NCBI GenBank assembly: GCA_041664445.1 | Contig: JBAYKT010000003.1 | Location: 6,282-70,281, forward strand | Source: Patescibacteria group bacterium | GTDB taxonomy: Bacteria > Patescibacteriota > Patescibacteriia > Patescibacteriales > UBA12465 | Direction of reading: 5' to 3' | Length of the DNA stretch: 64,000 bases | In this document: positions 8,157 to 24,369 of the stretch, one piece after another | Numbering within the stretch: the stretch's first letter is position 1 | Layout: each line of letters opens with the position of its first letter | Notes under the pieces: model-generated | The model's database searches: none | Seen by the model: only the letters and a program-made list of their open reading frames with translations | Told to the model about the DNA's origin: nothing | Position numbers and translations under genes: made by a program

Positions 8157-9974
8157 TTATTTTTTGTTGGTCGCTGGAATTTCTAAAACTGCTTTTTCCA
8201 ATTTATACAAACCAAAATTACTATTCATTTTTTTTATCAGCGACATCTTAAGTTCGTAAGGCAAGAGTTTGCGCTCATTCAGGTAATTTACATCCTCTTC
8301 CTTCAAATAAAAATTATAATAATAAACTGGATAATAATTAACTAATTTGGAAACCGCGGTCAGCATTTCTGCGTCGGGGATTGTTCCCATAATTACCCGG
8401 CGATCAGGAAAGAAAAACTTATCATAATATCTAGTGATAATCACCGAATTATTTTCCGTTAAACTAAAAACGCGTTTAGCGTTATCTTTCTCTGCCAAAT
8501 TATTATAATAAAGATAAGCTAAACCTTCTTCCGAGCCGTACAAAACGAATAAAATACTAGCAGCGGAAATAATAAGTACTGCCGAGGATTGGATGCCGGC
8601 GATAATAATTCTTTTCCAGCGTCTTTTTGGATGGTCGCCGGAAAACATTATCGCTTGTGAAAATCTGGTAATCGCCAACGCGGCAATTGGCATCATCATT
8701 AAATAAATTGGCAGCCAATAGCGGGTATAAGAATTACCGATAGTAAACCGATTAGGATCAGGGTTATCGTTAAATTTCCAAGAGCCATAATAAAAAATCA
8801 AAATCGCGCTAATAATCGCAAACGCCAAAAAGTAAGCCAAATATTTTTTTTGAAATTTACGAATATTCAAGACCAGAATTATTAGACAGCCCAATAAAAA
8901 GGCGCCCAATAAAACCGGAAACATTTCTAAGATATAGTGCCGGGCCATGCCGATGGATTGGTCTTTGTTAAATCCAAAATAAAAAATATTATGATAAATA
9001 GTTTCCAAATAAGCGCCATATTTATTATCGCCGCTAAAAAAAGATTGGACCATCTGGGAGCCGGTTTTTGATAAATCATCAAGCGAACGGTTCATTTCGT
9101 TATAACCGCCATAAATCGGAGCTGAGTATAGCGCTTGATTAAAATAAGCATTCGGCAAAATCGCCAAAAACAAACCGCACAAGATTAAAATTAATTTAAT
9201 AATTCCCAGGCGCTTAGCATAAAATAGCCAAACTACAAAAGCAGCTGGAGCTAACCATAAAATTTCTGAGGACCGGGTTATTAGCGCTAAACCAAAAAAA
9301 ATTCCGCTGATAAACGCCGCCAACATTTGCCACCAAATTTTCAAATCAAGCTTAAAGGTTAAAAATTTCTTATAGACTGAAATTTTAATAGCCTCTGGCG
9401 CTTCTTCCGGTTTTTTCTTTCTGTTCCCCGCCGCTAGAACAATAAAATAAACAGCCGTCACTACCAAAACGATAAATAAAACATTATGGAACATGCTCCT
9501 AACGGTGTAATAGACATAAACCGGGAAGGTCGCCAATAAAAAAGCGGAAATAAGAGCAATGCGATCAGAAAATATTTTTTTAATCAGGGCATAAAAAATA
9601 ACTATACCTAGAGCCGCAAAAAATGGCGTTAAAAAAGGAATAACTGCCGAGCCAAAAATTGAACCGATTTCTCCATACATCAAAATTATTCCCAAAAAAC
9701 TCACCGGTTTCAGCCAGCCGGCATCACTGCGAACACTTCGCGGCATTACCATATTATCGCCAACAATTGCCGCCGCATCAAAATATGCTAAACTTTCTCC
9801 CTCGCTAAAACGTTTGGCAAAAAAATAATTGGCAGTTTCATCAGGCGAAGACCATTTAGTATAATCGACGCTTTGAGTAAAATAATTAAAACTAGAGGTC
9901 GCCACGAAAAAAACAGCCGCCAAAATAACGACCAGCGCAATATTTATATGAGCTTTAATTTTTATTTTCATCAT
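8157..9974 (-). CDS. GT-C fold glycosyltransferase (ArnT/PMT_2-like polytopic membrane protein)
   Basis: Many TM segments. The first loop WSSPDETANYFFAKRFSEGESL parallels the E. coli ArnT [21 protein letters not shown] motif. Start moved to the MMKIKIK ATG (9974). Confidence 0.6.
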   Translation of the reverse strand: MMKIKIKAHINIALVVILAAVFFVATSSFNYFTQSVDYTKWSSPDETANYFFAKRFSEGESLAYFDAAAIVGDNMVMPRSVRSDAGWLKPVSFLGIILMYGEIGSIFGSAVIPFLTPFFAALGIVIFYALIKKIFSDRIALISAFLLATFPVYVYYTVRSMFHNVLFIVLVVTAVYFIVLAAGNRKKKPEEAPEAIKISVYKKFLTFKLDLKIWWQMLAAFISGIFFGLALITRSSEILWLAPAAFVVWLFYAKRLGIIKLILILCGLFLAILPNAYFNQALYSAPIYGGYNEMNRSLDDLSKTGSQMVQSFFSGDNKYGAYLETIYHNIFYFGFNKDQSIGMARHYILEMFPVLLGAFLLGCLIILVLNIRKFQKKYLAYFLAFAIISAILIFYYGSWKFNDNPDPNRFTIGNSYTRYWLPIYLMMMPIAALAITRFSQAIMFSGDHPKRRWKRIIIAGIQSSAVLIISAASILFVLYGSEEGLAYLYYNNLAEKDNAKRVFSLTENNSVIITRYYDKFFFPDRRVIMGTIPDAEMLTAVSKLVNYYPVYYYNFYLKEEDVNYLNERKLLPYELKMSLIKKMNSNFGLYKLEKAVLEIPATNKK

Positions 9975-10033
9975 TTTAATGTTATCCGAAATTGCCAATT
10001 TTAGCAAGAATTTGCTATCATATAAACAAAGCT

Positions 10034-12010
10034 ATGGAACACCCAAAACAAGCAAAAATAAGCCAAAACCTTAAGATTCTGGTCGCCTTACTAATATTTT
10101 TTAGCGCGGCTGTTTATTATTTTTATCGGCTTGACTCCGGGGGGCTAATAATAACGATTATTTTATCTATAGTTAGCCTAATTTTTTTAAATAAATACCA
10201 ACTACTCGCTAGCGACAAAAACTTAGATTTAGTTGAAAAAATAAACACCAAGCAGACAAAAATATCAAAAACAGTCATTGTTTATTTAATACTACTGGCG
10301 GCCGCGACCTGGGAATTAATCCAGGGTCGTAGCGGACGACCGCTCATATCGCCCTGGGAGGTCGTAAGCAGCCATTTTTTCTGGTTCTATGCTCTCAGTT
10401 CCCTAACCCTCATAATTTCGTTAATGAACGCCAAATTGGCTTCAAAAACTAAATTAATATTAATTGGCAGCCATTATTTTTTAAGCTTGTCCGTAGCGGC
10501 GATTGTCTACAAAGTCGGATATGGTTTTGACCCCTTCATTCATCAGGCCGCCATGGAAATAATTAACCAAGCGGGGCTTATTTTTCCTAAAACGCCTTAT
10601 TATCTGGGTGAATATGGGTTCATTATAATTATCCATAAGCTCCTAGGCATTTCTATTTACGCTCTTAATAAATTCCTGGTCCCCTTAGCGGCCGCTTGCT
10701 TACTACCGAAAGCGGTTCATCAACTCTCTAAACTTTTAGCCCCTGGCGATGAAGAAAATAATTCCGTAAGTTTTTTAGGAACACTACTGGCCCTTACTTT
10801 AAGCCTGCCCCTATTTATTGTCAGCACCCCCCAAAATTTTAGTTATATCTTTGTCATTCTCGCGCTTACTAGCGGTTTGACGCTCCAGAAAAAAACCGAA
10901 ACTTTAATTTTCTCGCTGGCAGCGGCAGCTATTCACCCTATTTCCGGCATTCCAGTATTAATTTGGAGTGCTTGGCTGATCTTTAAAACTCATTTTCAAA
11001 CACTACAAATAAAATCGCAAAAAATTATTTCTGCCTTAATTTTATCGGGCGGAGCGCTTGTTTTGCCACTGGCGCTGTTTATAATTAGCGGCGGGAAAAC
11101 AGTTAATTTAAAATTTAATTTAACAATTCTAGGGACGACTTTGCGAGATATTTTTAGACTAGCGGCTGCTGGCCAAGAAAATTGGTTATTAAATCTGGTA
11201 TATTTTATTTTTTACAACTATAGACTCTTGGTTATCGCCTTAATCGCCGCCGGAATTATTATCTTTTATCAAAAAAAACAAACTAAACTTTCCGAAAAAG
11301 AAAGACATACCATTCGCGGCATTCTCTCAATCAATGCCTCTTTAATTTTAGCTTTTATTTTCAGTACTCAAATAGCTTTTGGGCAAATAATCGCCTACGA
11401 GCAGGATGGATATTCTAAACGCATCCTTAATATTATTGTTATTTTTTTCCTGCCCTTTATCGCCCTAGCAATTAATTGGTTAATCGCTAGAATAAGTTCC
11501 CAAAAAGAAAATTTGTTAAAATTTATTTGGCTGAGCTTGGCTGTCACCTTTATTACTATCTCCATATACACGGCTTATCCGCGCTTTGATAAATATTTTA
11601 ACTCTCGCGGCTACAGCACTAGTATTTTTGATTTAGAGGCTGTCCAAAAAATAGCAGTGGAAACTAAACAACCCTATATTGTTCTAGCCAACCAACAGGT
11701 TTCTGCCGGCGCGCTAAAACTTTTAGGATTTAATCACTATTTTAAAACCGCCAAAGGCGAAGAAATCTATTTTTATCCGATTCCGACCGGAGGCACTCTA
11801 TACCAATATTTTTTGGATATGGTTTATAAAAGTCCCGACCGCAAAACCATGTTAAATGCCATGGATACGGCCGGGACTAATGAAGCTTATCTAGTTATCA
11901 ATAAATATTGGAACGAAAGCGGTAAAATAATTGCCGCTGCTAAATTAAGCGCTGATTCTTGGAGCGTAATCGGTAATAATGAGGTCTTTATTTTCAAATA
12001 CAAACGCTAG
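10034..12010 (+). CDS. Large polytopic membrane protein, unknown function
   Basis: About 658 aa, more than 12 hydrophobic segments, soluble C-terminal domain. Start set at MEHPKQAK (10034). Divergent from the GT-C gene across a 59-bp spacer. No motif recognised. Confidence 0.4.
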   Translation: MEHPKQAKISQNLKILVALLIFFSAAVYYFYRLDSGGLIITIILSIVSLIFLNKYQLLASDKNLDLVEKINTKQTKISKTVIVYLILLAAATWELIQGRSGRPLISPWEVVSSHFFWFYALSSLTLIISLMNAKLASKTKLILIGSHYFLSLSVAAIVYKVGYGFDPFIHQAAMEIINQAGLIFPKTPYYLGEYGFIIIIHKLLGISIYALNKFLVPLAAACLLPKAVHQLSKLLAPGDEENNSVSFLGTLLALTLSLPLFIVSTPQNFSYIFVILALTSGLTLQKKTETLIFSLAAAAIHPISGIPVLIWSAWLIFKTHFQTLQIKSQKIISALILSGGALVLPLALFIISGGKTVNLKFNLTILGTTLRDIFRLAAAGQENWLLNLVYFIFYNYRLLVIALIAAGIIIFYQKKQTKLSEKERHTIRGILSINASLILAFIFSTQIAFGQIIAYEQDGYSKRILNIIVIFFLPFIALAINWLIARISSQKENLLKFIWLSLAVTFITISIYTAYPRFDKYFNSRGYSTSIFDLEAVQKIAVETKQPYIVLANQQVSAGALKLLGFNHYFKTAKGEEIYFYPIPTGGTLYQYFLDMVYKSPDRKTMLNAMDTAGTNEAYLVINKYWNESGKIIAAAKLSADSWSVIGNNEVFIFKYKR

Positions 12011-15945: not shown

Positions 15946-16743
15946 ATGACTATTATCCAATCCCTTATTCTCGGCTTAATTGAGGGTTTAACGGAATTTC
16001 TGCCAATTTCTTCAACGGCGCATCTGATTATTACTGCCAATTGGTTAAAAATACCAGATTCAGAATCCCTAAAAAGCTTTCTAATTGCCATTCAATTAGG
16101 AGCAATTTTGTCGGTAGCAGTTTTGTATGCCAAAACCATCATTAAAAGTCCCAAATTGATTTGGAAAATTGCCGCCGCCTTTATCCCGACCTCTATTATC
16201 GGCCTCGCGGCTTATAAGCTTGTAAAGGGTTATCTGATGGAAAGCCTGCCAATAATTGCCGGGGCGCTCATTATAGGCGGCTTAATTTTGATTATTTTGG
16301 AAAAATATTTTTCTAAAAAGGCGCTAACAAGCACTGTTATTAAACAACCGAACGAAGCCGAGCTGAGCGCTATTACCTACCGCCAAGCAGCTATTATCGG
16401 CGCTTACCAAGCTCTAGCTGTTGTTCCCGGAGTCTCTCGCTCCGCGGCGACCATTATGGGTGGCTTATCATTAGGCATCTCTCGCAAAAATATCATTGAA
16501 TTTTCCTTTTTACTGGCCATGCCGACCATGTTGGCTGCTACCGCCTTTGATTTATATAAAAATCCCCCGATATTAAGTAACCAGGAGATTATCGTTTGGG
16601 CGTTGGGTTTTGTGATGGCTTTTATAACCGCAATTTTGGGAATTAAATTCTTTTTGCACTATATTCAAAAAAATAACTTTATTATTTTTGGCTGGTATAG
16701 AATTGTAGCCGGATTAATTATTACCGCTTATATATTATTATAA
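15946..16743 (+). CDS. uppP: Undecaprenyl-diphosphate phosphatase
   Basis: LGLIEGLTEFLPISSTAHL, PGVSRSAATI. 265 aa, polytopic. Confidence 0.9.
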   Translation: MTIIQSLILGLIEGLTEFLPISSTAHLIITANWLKIPDSESLKSFLIAIQLGAILSVAVLYAKTIIKSPKLIWKIAAAFIPTSIIGLAAYKLVKGYLMESLPIIAGALIIGGLILIILEKYFSKKALTSTVIKQPNEAELSAITYRQAAIIGAYQALAVVPGVSRSAATIMGGLSLGISRKNIIEFSFLLAMPTMLAATAFDLYKNPPILSNQEIIVWALGFVMAFITAILGIKFFLHYIQKNNFIIFGWYRIVAGLIITAYILL

Positions 16744-16764
16744 TTTACCCAAAAAAATTTCCCG

Positions 16765-16792
16765 CAAAAAAACCGCTTTATGGGCGGTTTTT
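16765..16792. terminator. Bidirectional rho-independent terminator (uppP / end of atp operon)
   Basis: aaaaaaa-CCGC-tttatgg-GCGG-ttttt. The flanking A and T runs extend the stem. Confidence 0.7.
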
Positions 16793-16814: not shown

Positions 16815-17648
16815 TTAAACTTGTTGAGCCAGAACTTCCTGTGGAGCGATAAAGCCATTTACTTTTACCAAGCCGTCATAGTCAGCCGCAATTTCTTCAG
16901 CCATCTTAGTTAACTGTTCATATTGAGCTTCATCTTTAGCGGAAATAATAAGATAAAAAGGATTCTCTTTATCAAATCTTTTTCCAAAAGAATGGTCACC
17001 CAGAGCAATGCCAATTAAAGCTTTGGCTTCGGTTTTCTGATATTCAGCACTTAAACCAAAATGAGCTGCCGAGCTAATAAATTGGCCCGGGAAACCCTCT
17101 AAATCGGCGACATTAAAGCGACCAGTTCCCTCTAAAACAAGCGTACGCTCATTATGGATAGGTGAAGTAAATTCATCGTGGTGAACTTCACGATAAGCAT
17201 TGCCGGTATCAGCCACTAATTCTTTGGCTTTTTGATAACCATAATTATCACTGTCCGGACCCGGATGAGCAATGCCAGCAGCACCGCAATTTTCGTGGCC
17301 AGTAATAGTCAGCCCTTGCTCTTTAATTGCTTTAACTAAAATCTCGCGATCTTCAGAATTAAGCAATAAGCCCTCTCCAGCCAAAGCCAATTTCCCTAAA
17401 TGGGAATTAACTCGGCCGTCAGAACATTCAAGGCAAGTTAGTTTATGGGCAAAAGCCTCTTTAAAGCCAGGAAGCGCAAATAATTTTTCTTGAAAACCTT
17501 CTCCGGCTTTCAGCGCTTCAATCAACTCATTTTTTTGGCCCTTCTCCCATTCTTTGTTAAATAACTCGTCATGATTTTCATGACCTTCATCATGTTTGTC
17601 CATTTTTTCAGTTTTGATGTGATTAAACATATTTTTTTCTCCAAACAT
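16815..17648 (-). CDS. Beta-carbonic-anhydrase-like protein (divergent), last gene of the atp operon
   Basis: CSDGRV (aa 75-80) and GHENCGAAG (aa 117-125) match the two beta-CA zinc-ligand motifs, CxDxR and HxxCG; compare E. coli Can CSDSRV and GHYGCGG. His/Glu-rich N-terminus. Starts 4 nt after the atpC stop. Confidence 0.45.
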   Translation of the reverse strand: MFGEKNMFNHIKTEKMDKHDEGHENHDELFNKEWEKGQKNELIEALKAGEGFQEKLFALPGFKEAFAHKLTCLECSDGRVNSHLGKLALAGEGLLLNSEDREILVKAIKEQGLTITGHENCGAAGIAHPGPDSDNYGYQKAKELVADTGNAYREVHHDEFTSPIHNERTLVLEGTGRFNVADLEGFPGQFISSAAHFGLSAEYQKTEAKALIGIALGDHSFGKRFDKENPFYLIISAKDEAQYEQLTKMAEEIAADYDGLVKVNGFIAPQEVLAQQV

Positions 17649-17652
17649 ATTT

Positions 17653-18099
17653 TTATTTTCCTGGATTTACATTTTTAAGGCGGCGCCACTTATTAAGAGC
17701 GCGTTCGCGGGCCAATTCCTTTTCAATCTTAGCGGCGATATTGGTAAATTGAACATCATCAACATTTTTGGCTTCTTCCTTAAGTTTCTCAGCCTTCTCT
17801 CTAGCCTCTTTAATCCGCGCCTCATCAAGTTCTTCCGCTCTTTCGGCTGTATCAGCCAAAATAACAACCTTGTCTTTCATGACCTCCAAAAATCCGCCAG
17901 AAACCGCCATAATCTCCACGACGTTATCTGCGCGCTTAATCTCAATAACTCCTGGTTGCAAAATAGAAACCAGGGGAATATGATCCGGAAGCACTGTTAT
18001 TTCTCCGCTGGCAGTTGGCACAGTAATTTGTAAAATTTCCTGTTTAAGAACCACCTTCTCCGGAGTAACAATTTCAAATTTTATTGTCTTAATAGACAT
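17653..18099 (-). CDS. atpC: F1 ATP synthase epsilon subunit
   Basis: Position after atpD. Beta-sandwich N-terminus plus a helical Glu/Lys-rich C-terminus. 148 aa. Confidence 0.85.
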   Translation of the reverse strand: MSIKTIKFEIVTPEKVVLKQEILQITVPTASGEITVLPDHIPLVSILQPGVIEIKRADNVVEIMAVSGGFLEVMKDKVVILADTAERAEELDEARIKEAREKAEKLKEEAKNVDDVQFTNIAAKIEKELARERALNKWRRLKNVNPGK

Positions 18100-18102
18100 A
18101 AA

Positions 18103-20456
<2,354 letters not shown>

Positions 20457-20458
20457 AC

Positions 20459-21982
20459 TTACTTAATTAAATAATCAACCGTCACTTTATAATCTTCAAT
20501 TAATTTCTTCAATCCGGCCTCTACTTCTTCGTCTAATTCTTTCTTAACATCAATTAATTTCAAAACCGCATCGTTTAAGTCGGCATATTTATATAAAGCA
20601 GCCTCAAATTCGCGGATGCGTTCTACCGGAACATTATCCATAAACCCATTAATCAGAGCATAATAGGCTAAAACCTGTTTAGCGACTGACAAGGGCTGAT
20701 ACTGGTCCTGCTTAAAGATTTCGTATAATCTTTGGCCGCGTTCCAATTTCTTTTTAGTTTCTGGATCTAAGTCAGAACCAAACTGAGCAAAAGCGGCAAG
20801 TTCACGATATTGAGCCGCTTCCAAACGCATCTTACCAGCTACTTTTTTCATCGCTTTGATTTGAGCACTAGAGCCGACACGAGAAACCGACAAACCAGCA
20901 TTAACCGCCGGACGATTACCTTTATAAAACAAATCTGGTTCCAAGAAAATTTGACCATCAGTAATAGAAATAACGTTGGTCGGAATATAGGCCGATAAAT
21001 CGCCAGCCTGGGTTTCAATAATTGGTAAAGCAGTAATAGAGCCGCCGCCGAAATCTTTATTCAATTTACAGGCACGTTCTAATAAACGAGAATGGAGATA
21101 AAAAACATCACCTGGGTAAGCTTCGCGTCCCGGAGGGCGACGTAACAGTAAAGAAATTTCACGATAGGAAACAGCGTGCTTAGATAAATCATCATAAATA
21201 ATCAAAACGTCTTCACCTTTATCCAAAAAATACTCGGCCATCGCGCAGCCGGCGTAAGGGGCAATATATAGCAAAGAAGCGGGGGTGGAAGCACCAGCTA
21301 AAACAATGGTGGTATAGTCCATGGCGCCAGCTTCCGTTAATTTAGTAACGATATTGGCAACTTTAGATTCTTTCTGACCAATGGCTACATAAACGCATTT
21401 CATGTTCTGGCCTTTTTGATTGATAATAGTATCAACCGCAATCGCTGTTTTTCCTAATTGACGGTCGCCAATGATCAATTCTCTCTGACCACGACCAATT
21501 GGAATCATGGCGTCAATCGCTTTAATTCCAGTCTGAACCGGTTCTTTAACAGAAGCGCGAGTGATAACACCCGGAGCAATTTTTTCTACCGGATAAAATT
21601 TAGTAGTTTCAATTTTACCTTTACCATCAAGCGGTTCACCGAGCGGATTAACCACGCGGCCAATCATATTCTCACCGACCGGAACCTCCAAAATTCTTTT
21701 GGTAGCGACTACTTCGTCGCCCTCTTTAATAACGGTAAAATCTCCCAAAATAATGGCTCCGACTTGGCTCTCTTCCAAATTCAAGGCCACACCAGTAATT
21801 TCACCTTTTTCCGTTTTAAAAATTAAAATTTCACTCATCATCGCTTCCGCCAAACCAGAAACCAGCGCGATACCATCGGAAACTTTCAAAACTTTACCGA
21901 CCGATTTTTCGCTCACTTCGGCCTTAAAGCCGGATATTTCTTCCTTTAGCTGTTCAACAATGAAATCCTTTGTAGTTGACAT
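20459..21982 (-). CDS. atpA: F1 ATP synthase alpha subunit
   Basis: Walker A GDRQLGKT. 507 aa, conserved throughout. Confidence 0.97.
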
Positions 21983-22003
21983 ACGTTTATGCTAAATTTA
22001 TTT

Positions 22004-22405
22004 TTAATTACTAATTTTATTTTTAAGGCTATTCAAACTATTTTTCAAACTGCCATCTAAAACTTTAGAACCATATCTTAAAATGAAACCGCCAATAATT
22101 TCCGGATTAATTTCTGTGGCTAAAATAATTTTTTTAGCGCCGGTCTGCTGCTTAAGATAGGTAGCGACTGTCTCACGAATAGCGGCCGAAAGTTCACGAG
22201 CACTGGAAAGGGTAGCCTCTACTTCTCCATGATCTTTATTCCAAAGTTCATTAAAGGCTTCGCTGATAGCGTCCGCCTTATTTAAATCATGATTTTTCCC
22301 CAAAACAGCAACAAAACTTTTAATAATTGTTTTGGCTTCTTTTTCCGATTTGTCAGCCACTAAATCAAATAAAGCGGCGGCATATTGAGAAACAGATATT
22401 TTCAT
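22004..22405 (-). CDS. atpH: F1 ATP synthase delta (OSCP) subunit, short form
   Basis: YAAALFDL start and IIGGFILRYGSKVLDGSLKNSLNSL end are OSCP-like. Only 133 aa against roughly 180 usual. Confidence 0.8.
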   Translation of the reverse strand: MKISVSQYAAALFDLVADKSEKEAKTIIKSFVAVLGKNHDLNKADAISEAFNELWNKDHGEVEATLSSARELSAAIRETVATYLKQQTGAKKIILATEINPEIIGGFILRYGSKVLDGSLKNSLNSLKNKISN

Positions 22406-22409
22406 AAAT

Positions 22410-22898
22410 CTACTTAAGCAATTTACTAATAAATTCCTGGTCTTTAGCGCCAGTCATTTTTTCCGCTAATAATTTTTCAACCGTTAAAATAACCAAGTCG
22501 GCAACTTCTTTTTTTATTTCTTTAAGCATTTCTGCTTTTTCACTAACCAATTTAGCTTTCTCCTGGCTTATAACTTGGGCGACCTCCTCCTTTGCTTTAA
22601 CAACCAAGGCGGCTTTTCGTTCTTCGCCACGTTTATCAGCTTCTTCAATTATTAAATTAGCTTGCTTTTTAGCAGCGGCAATAATATCAGCCTGCTCTTT
22701 TTCGGTTAATACTAAGCGCTTTTCAATGGCGTCAGCATCCTTCAAGCTTTTATCAATCTTTGCAGAACGCTCGGTCATTATTTTAACTAAAGGCTTAAAA
22801 GCAAAGAAGTATAAAACTGAAAAGACAATGGCAAAATTTACCAACTGTGCAATTAACAATTGGACATCGACGTGGAAAGTTGAAACTAATGATTCCAT
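22410..22898 (-). CDS. atpF: Fo ATP synthase b subunit
   Basis: Single N-terminal TM, then a long Ala/Glu/Lys coiled coil. Position between atpE and atpH. Confidence 0.85.
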   Translation of the reverse strand: MESLVSTFHVDVQLLIAQLVNFAIVFSVLYFFAFKPLVKIMTERSAKIDKSLKDADAIEKRLVLTEKEQADIIAAAKKQANLIIEEADKRGEERKAALVVKAKEEVAQVISQEKAKLVSEKAEMLKEIKKEVADLVILTVEKLLAEKMTGAKDQEFISKLLK

Positions 22899-22961
22899 AT
22901 TTATTTTTTATAATAATCTAGCGCTTTCTCCCGAAAATTTCAGGAGAAATCCGTCAAAATA

Positions 22962-23201
<240 letters not shown>

Positions 23202-23238
23202 TTATTGTTTTCGCCCCGCTGTTTATTTAAAATTTTAA

Positions 23239-24102
23239 TTAATGTTCTTCTGCTGTCGTGTTAATTGTTAAATATGTTAAAATCAACATCGCAAAAATAA
23301 GCGCCTGAATCAGGCCGACCAAAACTTCCAAAAACATAAACGGAATCGGAACTCCATAAGCTAAAATAGCTGACATCGAAGCCAGCAATACTTCTCCCGC
23401 AAAGACATTACCGAATAAACGAAAAGAAAGACTGGCAACCTTAGCCAATTCCCCGATAATTTCAATTAAGCCGACAAAAGCTTTTATCGGATTAACTAAA
23501 ATAATCATCGGATCCTTCATAATTTTCTTCGGTATTTCTAAAAAGGCTTTAATGTTTATGAACTTATTTAAATATTTCCACCAGCCGATAGCCAGTACTC
23601 CCATGATATGACTCAAAACAACACCTAAAGTCGCGAGCGCCAAGGTAGTATTTAAATCAGCGGTGCCGCCGCGCAAATAAGGAATAAATATTTTTTCATC
23701 ACCGTGAGCAGCAATTTGACCGATGGAACCGACTCCTGGGAGTAACCCCATCCAATTGTTAATAAGAATAAAAAAGAAAAAGGCTAAGACCACGGGCGCA
23801 AATTTTAAAGATTTTTTGCGGTCGCCAGTGACACCATCAAAAATTCCCAAAAATCCCTCAATAATAATTTCCATCGCATTCTGCAGACCGGTCGGGACTT
23901 TCTTTAAATTACGTCTGATAGTAATTGCTAAAATAGCAATAATAATTAAAGCAAGAGTTGAAGTCGCTAAAGCATTGGTAACCGGAAAACTACCGATATG
24001 AGCTATCGGCTCGGCAAATAAAGTATTTTCATGAATTACTTCATCAGTATTTTCGTGAACGGTACTCTCGGTATTTTCTTGGATAATATTCTCTGCTCCC
24101 AT
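23239..24102 (-). CDS. atpB: Fo ATP synthase a subunit
   Basis: SLSFRLFGNVFAGEVLL (essential Arg helix). Polytopic, 287 aa. Confidence 0.93.
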   Translation of the reverse strand: MGAENIIQENTESTVHENTDEVIHENTLFAEPIAHIGSFPVTNALATSTLALIIIAILAITIRRNLKKVPTGLQNAMEIIIEGFLGIFDGVTGDRKKSLKFAPVVLAFFFFILINNWMGLLPGVGSIGQIAAHGDEKIFIPYLRGGTADLNTTLALATLGVVLSHIMGVLAIGWWKYLNKFINIKAFLEIPKKIMKDPMIILVNPIKAFVGLIEIIGELAKVASLSFRLFGNVFAGEVLLASMSAILAYGVPIPFMFLEVLVGLIQALIFAMLILTYLTINTTAEEH

Positions 24103-24117
24103 TTTTTTGGAATTAAC

Positions 24118-24369
24118 TTATTTTTTTTCTTCTTTATTTTTAGCGTATTCGTCTTCAATTTTCTTAAATTCTTTCATGGCATTTTTAACCAAACCGTACA
24201 TAGAAACCACAAAACTTAAAGCCACGGTAGCCAGGAAAAGCCAGGGCTCAGTGTTGAATCTGATATCCAGCCATTTTCCTAAAAATACGCCGATAAGCAC
24301 CGGAAAAGCAATCCAACCAGAAATTCTAGCCATGATTTTCAGGGCCAAGCTCCAAGTGTCATTTTTCAT
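24118..24369 (-). CDS. AtpZ/AtpI-like small membrane protein
   Basis: 83 aa, two TM segments. First gene of the atp operon, directly downstream of the promoter. Confidence 0.5.
   Translation of the reverse strand: MKNDTWSLALKIMARISGWIAFPVLIGVFLGKWLDIRFNTEPWLFLATVALSFVVSMYGLVKNAMKEFKKIEDEYAKNKEEKK

Follow-up and report, generated by a model that had tools for sequence, protein, structure and literature searches.

What does an unannotated protein of 277 amino acids do at the end of an ATP synthase operon? This question was raised by an open reading frame (ORF), here called X, in a stretch of 64,000 nucleotides from a Patescibacteria group bacterium (assembly GCA_041664445.1, contig JBAYKT010000003.1, positions 6,282 to 70,281 of the forward strand), which is referred to as the window and is numbered from its first letter. 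From the letters of the DNA, the original prediction had taken X for a gene resembling beta-class carbonic anhydrases (beta-CAs) that is transcribed with the ATP synthase genes. X probably has a metal centre of the beta-CA type in a new architecture, and there is a realistic chance that it is a new kind of ATPase partner. Relatives of X are a conserved, co-directional component of F-type and V/A-type ATPase operons across divergent lineages, and X is a candidate new partner of rotary proton pumps.

Invariant residues and the probable beta-carbonic anhydrase-like site

The gene and the residues on which the comparison turns were located as follows.

16815 to 17648, minus strand: ORF X, 277 amino acids, ATG start, TAA stop at 16817-16815
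17412 to 17426, minus strand: motif 1, C75-S-D-G-R79, at the C-terminal end of predicted strand 72-74
17283 to 17297, minus strand: motif 2, H118-E-N-C121-G122, at the end of predicted strand 114-118 and the start of helix 122-127
17145 to 17156, minus strand: motif 3, H165-N-E167-R168, with no confidently aligned beta-CA counterpart
16992 to 16994, minus strand: H219, in an I-A-x-G-x-H-G-F-G motif after predicted helix 201-216

Motifs 1 and 2, which the original prediction had read as the zinc-ligand signatures of beta-CAs, were both present, at a spacing of 43 residues, and a codon check on the DNA (aca at 17424-17426, TGT on the minus strand) returned Cys75. The motifs of Escherichia coli Can to which they had been likened, CSDSRV and GHYGCGG, were confirmed from NC_000913.3. 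Conservation was counted in 300 diverse family sequences, down to ~25% identity. C75 and D77 were retained in 299 of these and H118 and C121 in all 300, so the two motifs are more than a chance occurrence and are conserved in relatives, as the beta-CA assignment had presupposed. H165 was retained in 295 sequences and H219 in 289. Position 79 was Arg in 161 sequences and Gly in 138 (46%); in the alignment of close homologues, Arg79 was present in all 33 members. The resulting family signature reads C-x-D-[GE]-[RG]...A-G-x-G-I-L-L...[ST]-H-x-x-C-G-A-A...H-x-[EA]-R...I-A-x-G-x-H-G-F-G.

Positions 78 and 167 were occupied by an acidic residue in a mutually exclusive manner in 298 of the 300 sequences. 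Glu or Asp at position 78 was combined with a nonacidic residue (almost always Ala) at position 167 in 194 sequences, and a nonacidic residue (almost always Gly) at position 78 with Glu at position 167 in 104; acidic residues were present at both positions in none and at neither position in 2. On a rough neighbour-joining tree built without these columns, the state changed at least ~20 times (an approximate number), and the exclusivity is therefore not the effect of a single clade. Through this swap, the H165-x-[E/A]-R motif and the CxDxR loop are linked.

X shares several features with beta-CAs (PF00484; E. coli Can, PDB 1I6P): the first core strand leads into C-x-D-x-R, the turn from the third strand into a helix holds H-x-x-C-G-[AG], a helical arm with 'pGF.e.F' comes before them, and the elements run strand-strand-helix-strand-helix. 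Unlike in beta-CAs, the motifs are 43 instead of ~56 residues apart, the Arg is optional across the family, and an extra C-terminal alpha/beta region of ~115 amino acids carries the invariant His165 and His219. Alignment of the X family with E. coli Can by hhalign gave a probability of 66.6% (P = 5.4e-5) and paired C75 with C42, D77 with D44, R79 with R46, H118 with H98, and C121 with C101 in collinear order. A homologue search from E. coli Can gave only sequences that were at least 76% identical, too uniform for a profile; the beta-CA profile was made from 23 sequences from plasmid records and Can relatives, including 12 diverse plasmid-borne beta-CAs. A profile of 185 X sequences scored 40.5 against this profile (P = 2.4e-5, 75% probability), and the Viterbi path, from residues 73-129 to residues 40-109, covered both motifs, the intervening strand, and all five catalytic residues. 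Scores of the controls (one reversed and 30 column-shuffled profiles) were at most 18.3 (P ≥ 0.07). The hhalign matches spanned 55 to 75 columns at 66.6 to 75% probability, where the usual confidence level is 90%. A hidden Markov model (HMM) of X matched 23 of 23 beta-CAs across both motifs, weakly (7 to 12 bits), and sub-threshold matches to Pro_CA (PF00484) were obtained in 13 of 33 members (best E, 0.01).

The AlphaFold2 models of X and of a 28%-identical relative had mean predicted local distance difference test (pLDDT) scores of 90.6 and 93.0, respectively. The predicted order of elements through the fourth strand (helical arm, strand, CxDxR, strand, helix, strand, HxxC, helix, helix, strand) agreed with the alignment with Can. 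Residues ~160 to 277 were modelled as four more strands and two long helices, which carry the invariant H165 and H219. This C-terminal half is without a detectable beta-CA counterpart, in line with the remark in the original prediction that the rest of the protein does not look like a canonical beta-CA. The metal-site signature and the local scaffold of X are, with good probability, beta-CA-derived. X therefore resembles a beta-CA at the metal site without being a demonstrated member of the class, and the protein as a whole lies outside the described family.

Divergent members of the carbonic anhydrase world offered further comparisons. In CsoSCA, carbonyl sulfide (COS) hydrolase (3vqj), and Pro_CA_2 (PF20393), the Cys/Asp/His/Cys site persists where standard beta-CA models barely detect it. 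An extra domain replaces the partner protomer in CsoSCA. Unlike in CsoSCA, no internal duplication was detectable in X by hhalign, and such a pseudo-dimer was rejected (N-terminal versus C-terminal half and C-terminal half versus beta-CA, all <1% probability). Kinship with Pro_CA_2 was likewise rejected: PF20393 gave no match to X at E values up to 10, and hhalign with a PF20393-like neighbour gave 1.3% probability, with HxxCG alone aligned.

Rotary ATPase operons with X or its relatives

In the window, the atp operon ends with X. The TAA stop of atpC lies at 17655-17653 and the ATG of X at 17648, which leaves 4 nucleotides between them, as had been predicted. The exact X sequence is present in NCBI as MFA6416748.1, labelled 'hypothetical protein.' A word-indexed search returned 53 close clusters, and an exhaustive profile search returned 642 representative clusters at E ≤1e-3, 472 of them at E ≤1e-10. 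Nearly all family members were 240 to 300 amino acids long, and none had a Pfam domain or a name beyond 'hypothetical.' The closest genomes were those of Candidatus Falkowbacteria; in JAEHGX010000006.1, identity was 93% for X, 99% for AtpC, and 98% for AtpD. Other relatives came from Moraniibacteria, Portnoybacteria, further Patescibacteria, and two metagenome-assembled genomes of Altiarchaeota, in one of which the X copy shares a 211-kb contig with an archaeal-type PcrB gene, three genes away. The X family is thus an unannotated one, found in Patescibacteria (candidate phyla radiation [CPR]) and some archaea.

In the close subfamily (37 to 93% identity to X), all 30 of 30 loci had the order atpD-atpC-X in one direction, and the gene downstream of X varied (BacA, Cpn10/Cpn60, or a Pro_CA_2-like gene). 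The distant subfamily was assessed around its central member, P0115, which is ~28% identical to X, in 62 metagenome loci and 4 look-ups. The ATPase alpha/beta family was the sole recurrent neighbour there (15 of 63 loci). Linkage to an ATPase was found in ~18 of 66 loci overall and in 13 of the 49 with at least 1.5 kb of upstream sequence. Four positions were occupied.

L049, L056, L060, L063, L074/75, L082, L083, and L111: X after epsilon
L096 to L099: atpA-X-atpG (alpha-X-gamma), confirmed by Pfam in L097
L070: atpG-X-atpD (gamma-X-beta)
L085 to L088: V/A-type B-X-D, confirmed by Pfam in L085 (catalytic A, B, then ATP-synt_D)

The relative in the V-type operon (L085:3531-4304) matched no Pfam or NCBIfam family. 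On the family tree, ATPase-linked members were dispersed among unlinked ones. Roughly estimated, the chance for a gene placed at random in a 1-Mb genome to fall within 3.5 kb of the ATPase operon is ~1 to 2%, compared with the observed ~25 to 100%, and the association is therefore far beyond chance. It points to the soluble F1/V1 head.

Among unlinked copies no common neighbour theme was found; their neighbours included SNase, VKOR, Smr, archease/RtcB, and phosphoribosyl pyrophosphate (PRPP) synthetase genes. One stand-alone relative (L046) had an encapsulated-ferritin-like gene, a CsoR-type repressor, heavy-metal-associated (HMA) chaperones, and a Cu P-type ATPase nearby, and a ferritin gene adjoined another (L047); these neighbours, at two loci only, may hint at metal handling. 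In a metagenomic protein of 616 amino acids (P0144), a GGDEF diguanylate cyclase domain (residues 101 to 238) was fused to a full X domain that keeps C-P-D-T-R, HEDCGAA, the HxER motif, and the DGHGYG motif. As read from its sequence, this fusion suggests that the X domain is able to serve as a sensor or regulatory module.

The operon that X closes in the window comprises a complete F1Fo set in the order a, c, b, delta, alpha, gamma, beta, epsilon, as identified from the ORFs and the Pfam labels of orthologous loci.

17653 to 24102, minus strand: F1Fo operon
23239 to 24102, minus strand: atpB
22962 to 23174, minus strand: atpE
22410 to 22898, minus strand: atpF
22004 to 22405, minus strand: atpH
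20459 to 21982, minus strand: atpA
19506 to 20456, minus strand: atpG
18103 to 19491, minus strand: atpD
17653 to 18099, minus strand: atpC
17628 to 17630, minus strand: alternative start of X at Met7, an in-frame ATG with its own GGAG Shine-Dalgarno sequence
~16764 to 16792: hairpin AAAAACCGC-CCAUAAA-GCGGUUUUU with a U-run, a 9-bp stem, flanking A- and U-runs, and a free-energy change of -12.7 kcal/mol

In the homologue alignment, the Met7 column was the start in many or most homologues, and since Met7 also has its GGAG, the true start of X could be either ATG. Residues 1 to 22 (17583-17648) were rich in His, Glu, and Asp (KHDEGHENHDE) and had pLDDT values below 50; the H-x-x-H-E pattern of this N terminus was repeated in close homologues and is similar to tails with which metallochaperones bind metal. 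The hairpin lies ~20 nucleotides past the stop of X and also closes the convergent uppP/BacA gene (15946 to 16743, plus strand). From its sequence it is a probable bidirectional intrinsic terminator common to X and uppP, which agrees with the predicted end of the transcript at a shared terminator; a simple consensus terminator scan of the window did not list the hairpin at 16764-16792.

Several further observations concerned genes near X or its relatives. Directly upstream of atpB, an ORF encoding a hydrophobic protein of 83 amino acids (24118-24369, minus strand) occupied the slot usual for AtpI/AtpZ-type proteins. In Candidatus Moraniibacteriota, a 311-amino-acid gene with CMDYR and HQDCG followed X on the same strand (L003:6920-7855, also in L004 and L005); its match to Pro_CA_2 was below threshold (E = 1.5e-5, 25.6 versus 30 bits), and in these loci the atp operon is thus directly followed by a second CA-like gene. 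In several distant loci, a 1,385-amino-acid UvrD/PD-(D/E)XK helicase-nuclease with Hint/intein-splicing domains (L049:6890-11047) lies downstream of X and appears to be an intein-containing helicase. A GroEL gene downstream of X was split into 174 and 380 amino acids in L008 (7712-9366) and intact, with 556 amino acids, in the near-identical L009 (7511-9181); the split is probably a frameshift or an assembly error. Elsewhere in the window, two divergent ORFs for polytopic membrane proteins of 616 and 672 amino acids (8157-10007, minus strand, and 9992-12010, plus strand) had TTG starts and overlapped by 16 nucleotides at their 5' ends. Scans of the whole 64-kb window for tRNA genes and for Rfam families at the gathering threshold found none.

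Possible roles of X at the ATPase

We tentatively favour, from the sequence evidence and far from securely, a beta-CA-type zinc protein that would handle CO2/bicarbonate for an ATPase working mainly as an ATP-driven proton pump. X would be a soluble metalloprotein of ~30 kDa, in which residues ~55 to 160 would keep the beta-CA metal centre and its strand-loop-strand-helix-strand-helix order: one strand would be followed by Cys75 and Asp77(-Arg79), and the turn from the next strand into a helix would hold His118 and Cys121. The C-terminal half would add His165, Glu167/Arg168, and probably His219 to the site. Co-transcribed with the F1 genes and probably translationally coupled, X would interconvert, or at least bind, CO2/HCO3- at the cytoplasmic face of the rotary ATPase. 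In fermentative, respiration-poor hosts the ATPase would run largely as an ATP-driven proton pump, and CO2 hydration would supply and buffer the exported protons. Bicarbonate acts like phosphate-like oxyanions on F1, and the bicarbonate product could also act on the F1/V1 head. We infer zinc binding, catalysis, ATPase direction, and the physical contact between X and the ATPase.

Two published systems provide background for these steps: in proton-secreting cells, cytosolic CAII makes the protons moved by V-ATPase (PMC8294626), and phosphate-like oxyanions relieve the Mg-ADP inhibition of F1Fo hydrolysis (PMC8039183). The logic of the animal CAII/V-ATPase pair, in which a CA makes protons for a rotary ATPase, is like that proposed here, and X is genetically tied to F-type and V/A-type pumps. 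Unlike X, CAII is an alpha-class enzyme of unrelated sequence and fold that is not encoded with the pump, whereas the coupling of X is read from gene order only.

A number of results weighed against such a carbonic anhydrase. PF00484 (Pro_CA), the family model that a beta-CA should match, gave X 13.2 bits (E = 0.11), under the gathering threshold of 25.7 bits; this match was limited to residues 105 to 158, around HxxCG. NCBIfam models did not match X, and PDB sequence searches with X and its profile returned nothing significant, with the beta-CA 1ddz at E = 1 only. Foldseek comparison of both models (pLDDT > 90) with the PDB found no beta-CA and no significant neighbour, the best matches having E values of 0.15 and 0.014 and template modelling (TM) scores of ~0.2. 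The beta-2 motif G-[DE]-x-F-V-x-R-N of beta-CAs was replaced by A-G-x-G-I-L-L in X, the conserved beta-CA Gln fell in an alignment gap, and the second-shell and substrate-pocket residues of beta-CAs (beta-2 motif, Gln, Phe, and Tyr) were not found in X. Where the Arg of the Asp-Arg dyad is Gly (138 of 300), Cys/Asp/His/Cys could close a four-ligand structural site. That the conserved residues would lie on one site we infer from predicted topology and covariation only. In genomic context, the alpha-X-gamma, gamma-X-beta, and B-X-D insertions are less expected of metabolic enzymes than of subunits or assembly factors, and about three quarters of the distant subfamily were not beside an ATPase. 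The beta-CA-like identity proposed originally therefore stood for the invariant motifs and their collinear alignment with Can and did not stand for the PF00484, NCBIfam, PDB, and PF20393 searches or for the fold.

The alternative ranked nearly as likely as the favoured carbonic anhydrase-type reading, and by itself somewhat unlikely, is that X is a noncatalytic accessory of the F1/V1 head (an assembly chaperone, a regulator or inhibitor, or a redox or metal sensor) with a closed structural or switchable zinc site, its resemblance to beta-CAs coming from ancestry or convergence, not from activity. In three lineages, structural genes flank the relatives of X (alpha-X-gamma, gamma-X-beta, and V/A-type B-X-D), the 4-nucleotide gap after atpC suggests coupled translation and stoichiometric expression, and the GGDEF fusion of P0144 fits a sensor role. 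The four invariant residues would be a full tetrahedral ligand set, the catalytic Arg is dispensable in 46% of sequences, and the fold is without a solved neighbour. That a CA-derived protein can become a fixed part of a bioenergetic membrane complex has a precedent in plants and protists, whose mitochondrial complex I has gamma-CA-like proteins as structural subunits; these differ from X in class (left-handed beta-helix), in the complex they join, and in having a structurally proven subunit status, X being a putative subunit. Epsilon, zeta, IF1, and AtpI/AtpZ, small F-ATPase partners with genes in or close to atp operons, resemble X in operon membership and perhaps in regulating from the F1 side, and differ in that they have no sequence similarity to X, which is much larger and has an enzyme-like invariant Cys/His/Asp centre. 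Against an accessory role speak the lack of any Pfam or NCBIfam likeness to a known ATPase subunit, inhibitor, or assembly factor, the location of most distant-subfamily members away from an ATPase, and the invariant His165, His219, and mobile acidic residue, for which a structural site has no obvious need.

A passenger enzyme of other chemistry at the end of the atp operon, either a zinc enzyme of the COS/carbon disulfide (CS2) hydrolase type or a Cys/His/Asp thiol hydrolase or amidase, is distinctly unlikely. Beta-CA-type sites also hydrolyse COS and CS2, the COS hydrolase 3vqj being a relative of Can, and Cys, His, and Asp are also the residues of triads. Stand-alone copies lie beside unrelated genes (RtcB/archease, PRPP synthetase, or NAD synthase) or metal-related ones (ferritin, EncFtn, or Cu-ATPase), and the slot after atpC commonly holds unrelated passenger genes. 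A passenger is hard to reconcile with a linkage that holds in two ATPase types, at four positions, and down to ~28% identity while all other neighbours change, and that reaches ~25 to 100% where ~1 to 2% would be roughly expected by chance. The thiol hydrolase version is further opposed by the surroundings of C121, which, as read from the sequence, lack the small-x-Nu-x-small nucleophile elbow. A chance resemblance in a protein without a metal site is very improbable: the motifs are short, the database scores against beta-CA are all sub-threshold, and there is no fold match, but the four residues are the most conserved positions in a family of ~640 clusters, and their order, spacing, and flanking strand are collinear with beta-CA at a P of ~2e-5, versus ≥0.07 for shuffled profiles.

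Significance for the ATPases of CPR bacteria and archaea

Our literature search found neither the X family nor the placing of a CA-like gene within operons for rotary ATPases described, in keeping with the original remark that the arrangement is not a described feature. It is possible, and we put it forward with reservation, that X represents a new class of rotary ATPase partner in CPR bacteria and some archaea, with a beta-CA-derived centre in a fold without a solved relative, that acts on the F1/V1 head either as a dedicated module for protons and bicarbonate or, in response to metals, redox state, or CO2, as a regulator or assembly factor. Should X prove to be a carbonic anhydrase, the beta class would gain a new structural variant, and prokaryotes would have a counterpart of the coupling between CA and V-ATPase in proton-secreting animal cells. 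Should it instead be a subunit, a regulator, or an assembly factor, a new type of accessory protein would be added to those of ATPases. In both cases, ~640 clusters of 'hypothetical proteins' would receive an annotation open to testing.

A large part of microbial diversity consists of CPR bacteria and DPANN-like archaea, which are mostly without respiratory chains and yet retain rotary ATPases. Because the X family is conserved and lineage restricted, has an enzyme-like invariant centre, and occurs in F-type and V/A-type operons at four positions, it offers a concrete, clonable handle on the direction and regulation of the ATPase in these organisms. If X does belong to a new class of partner, the 'minimal' ATPases of CPR and archaeal hosts would have an unrecognised extra component.

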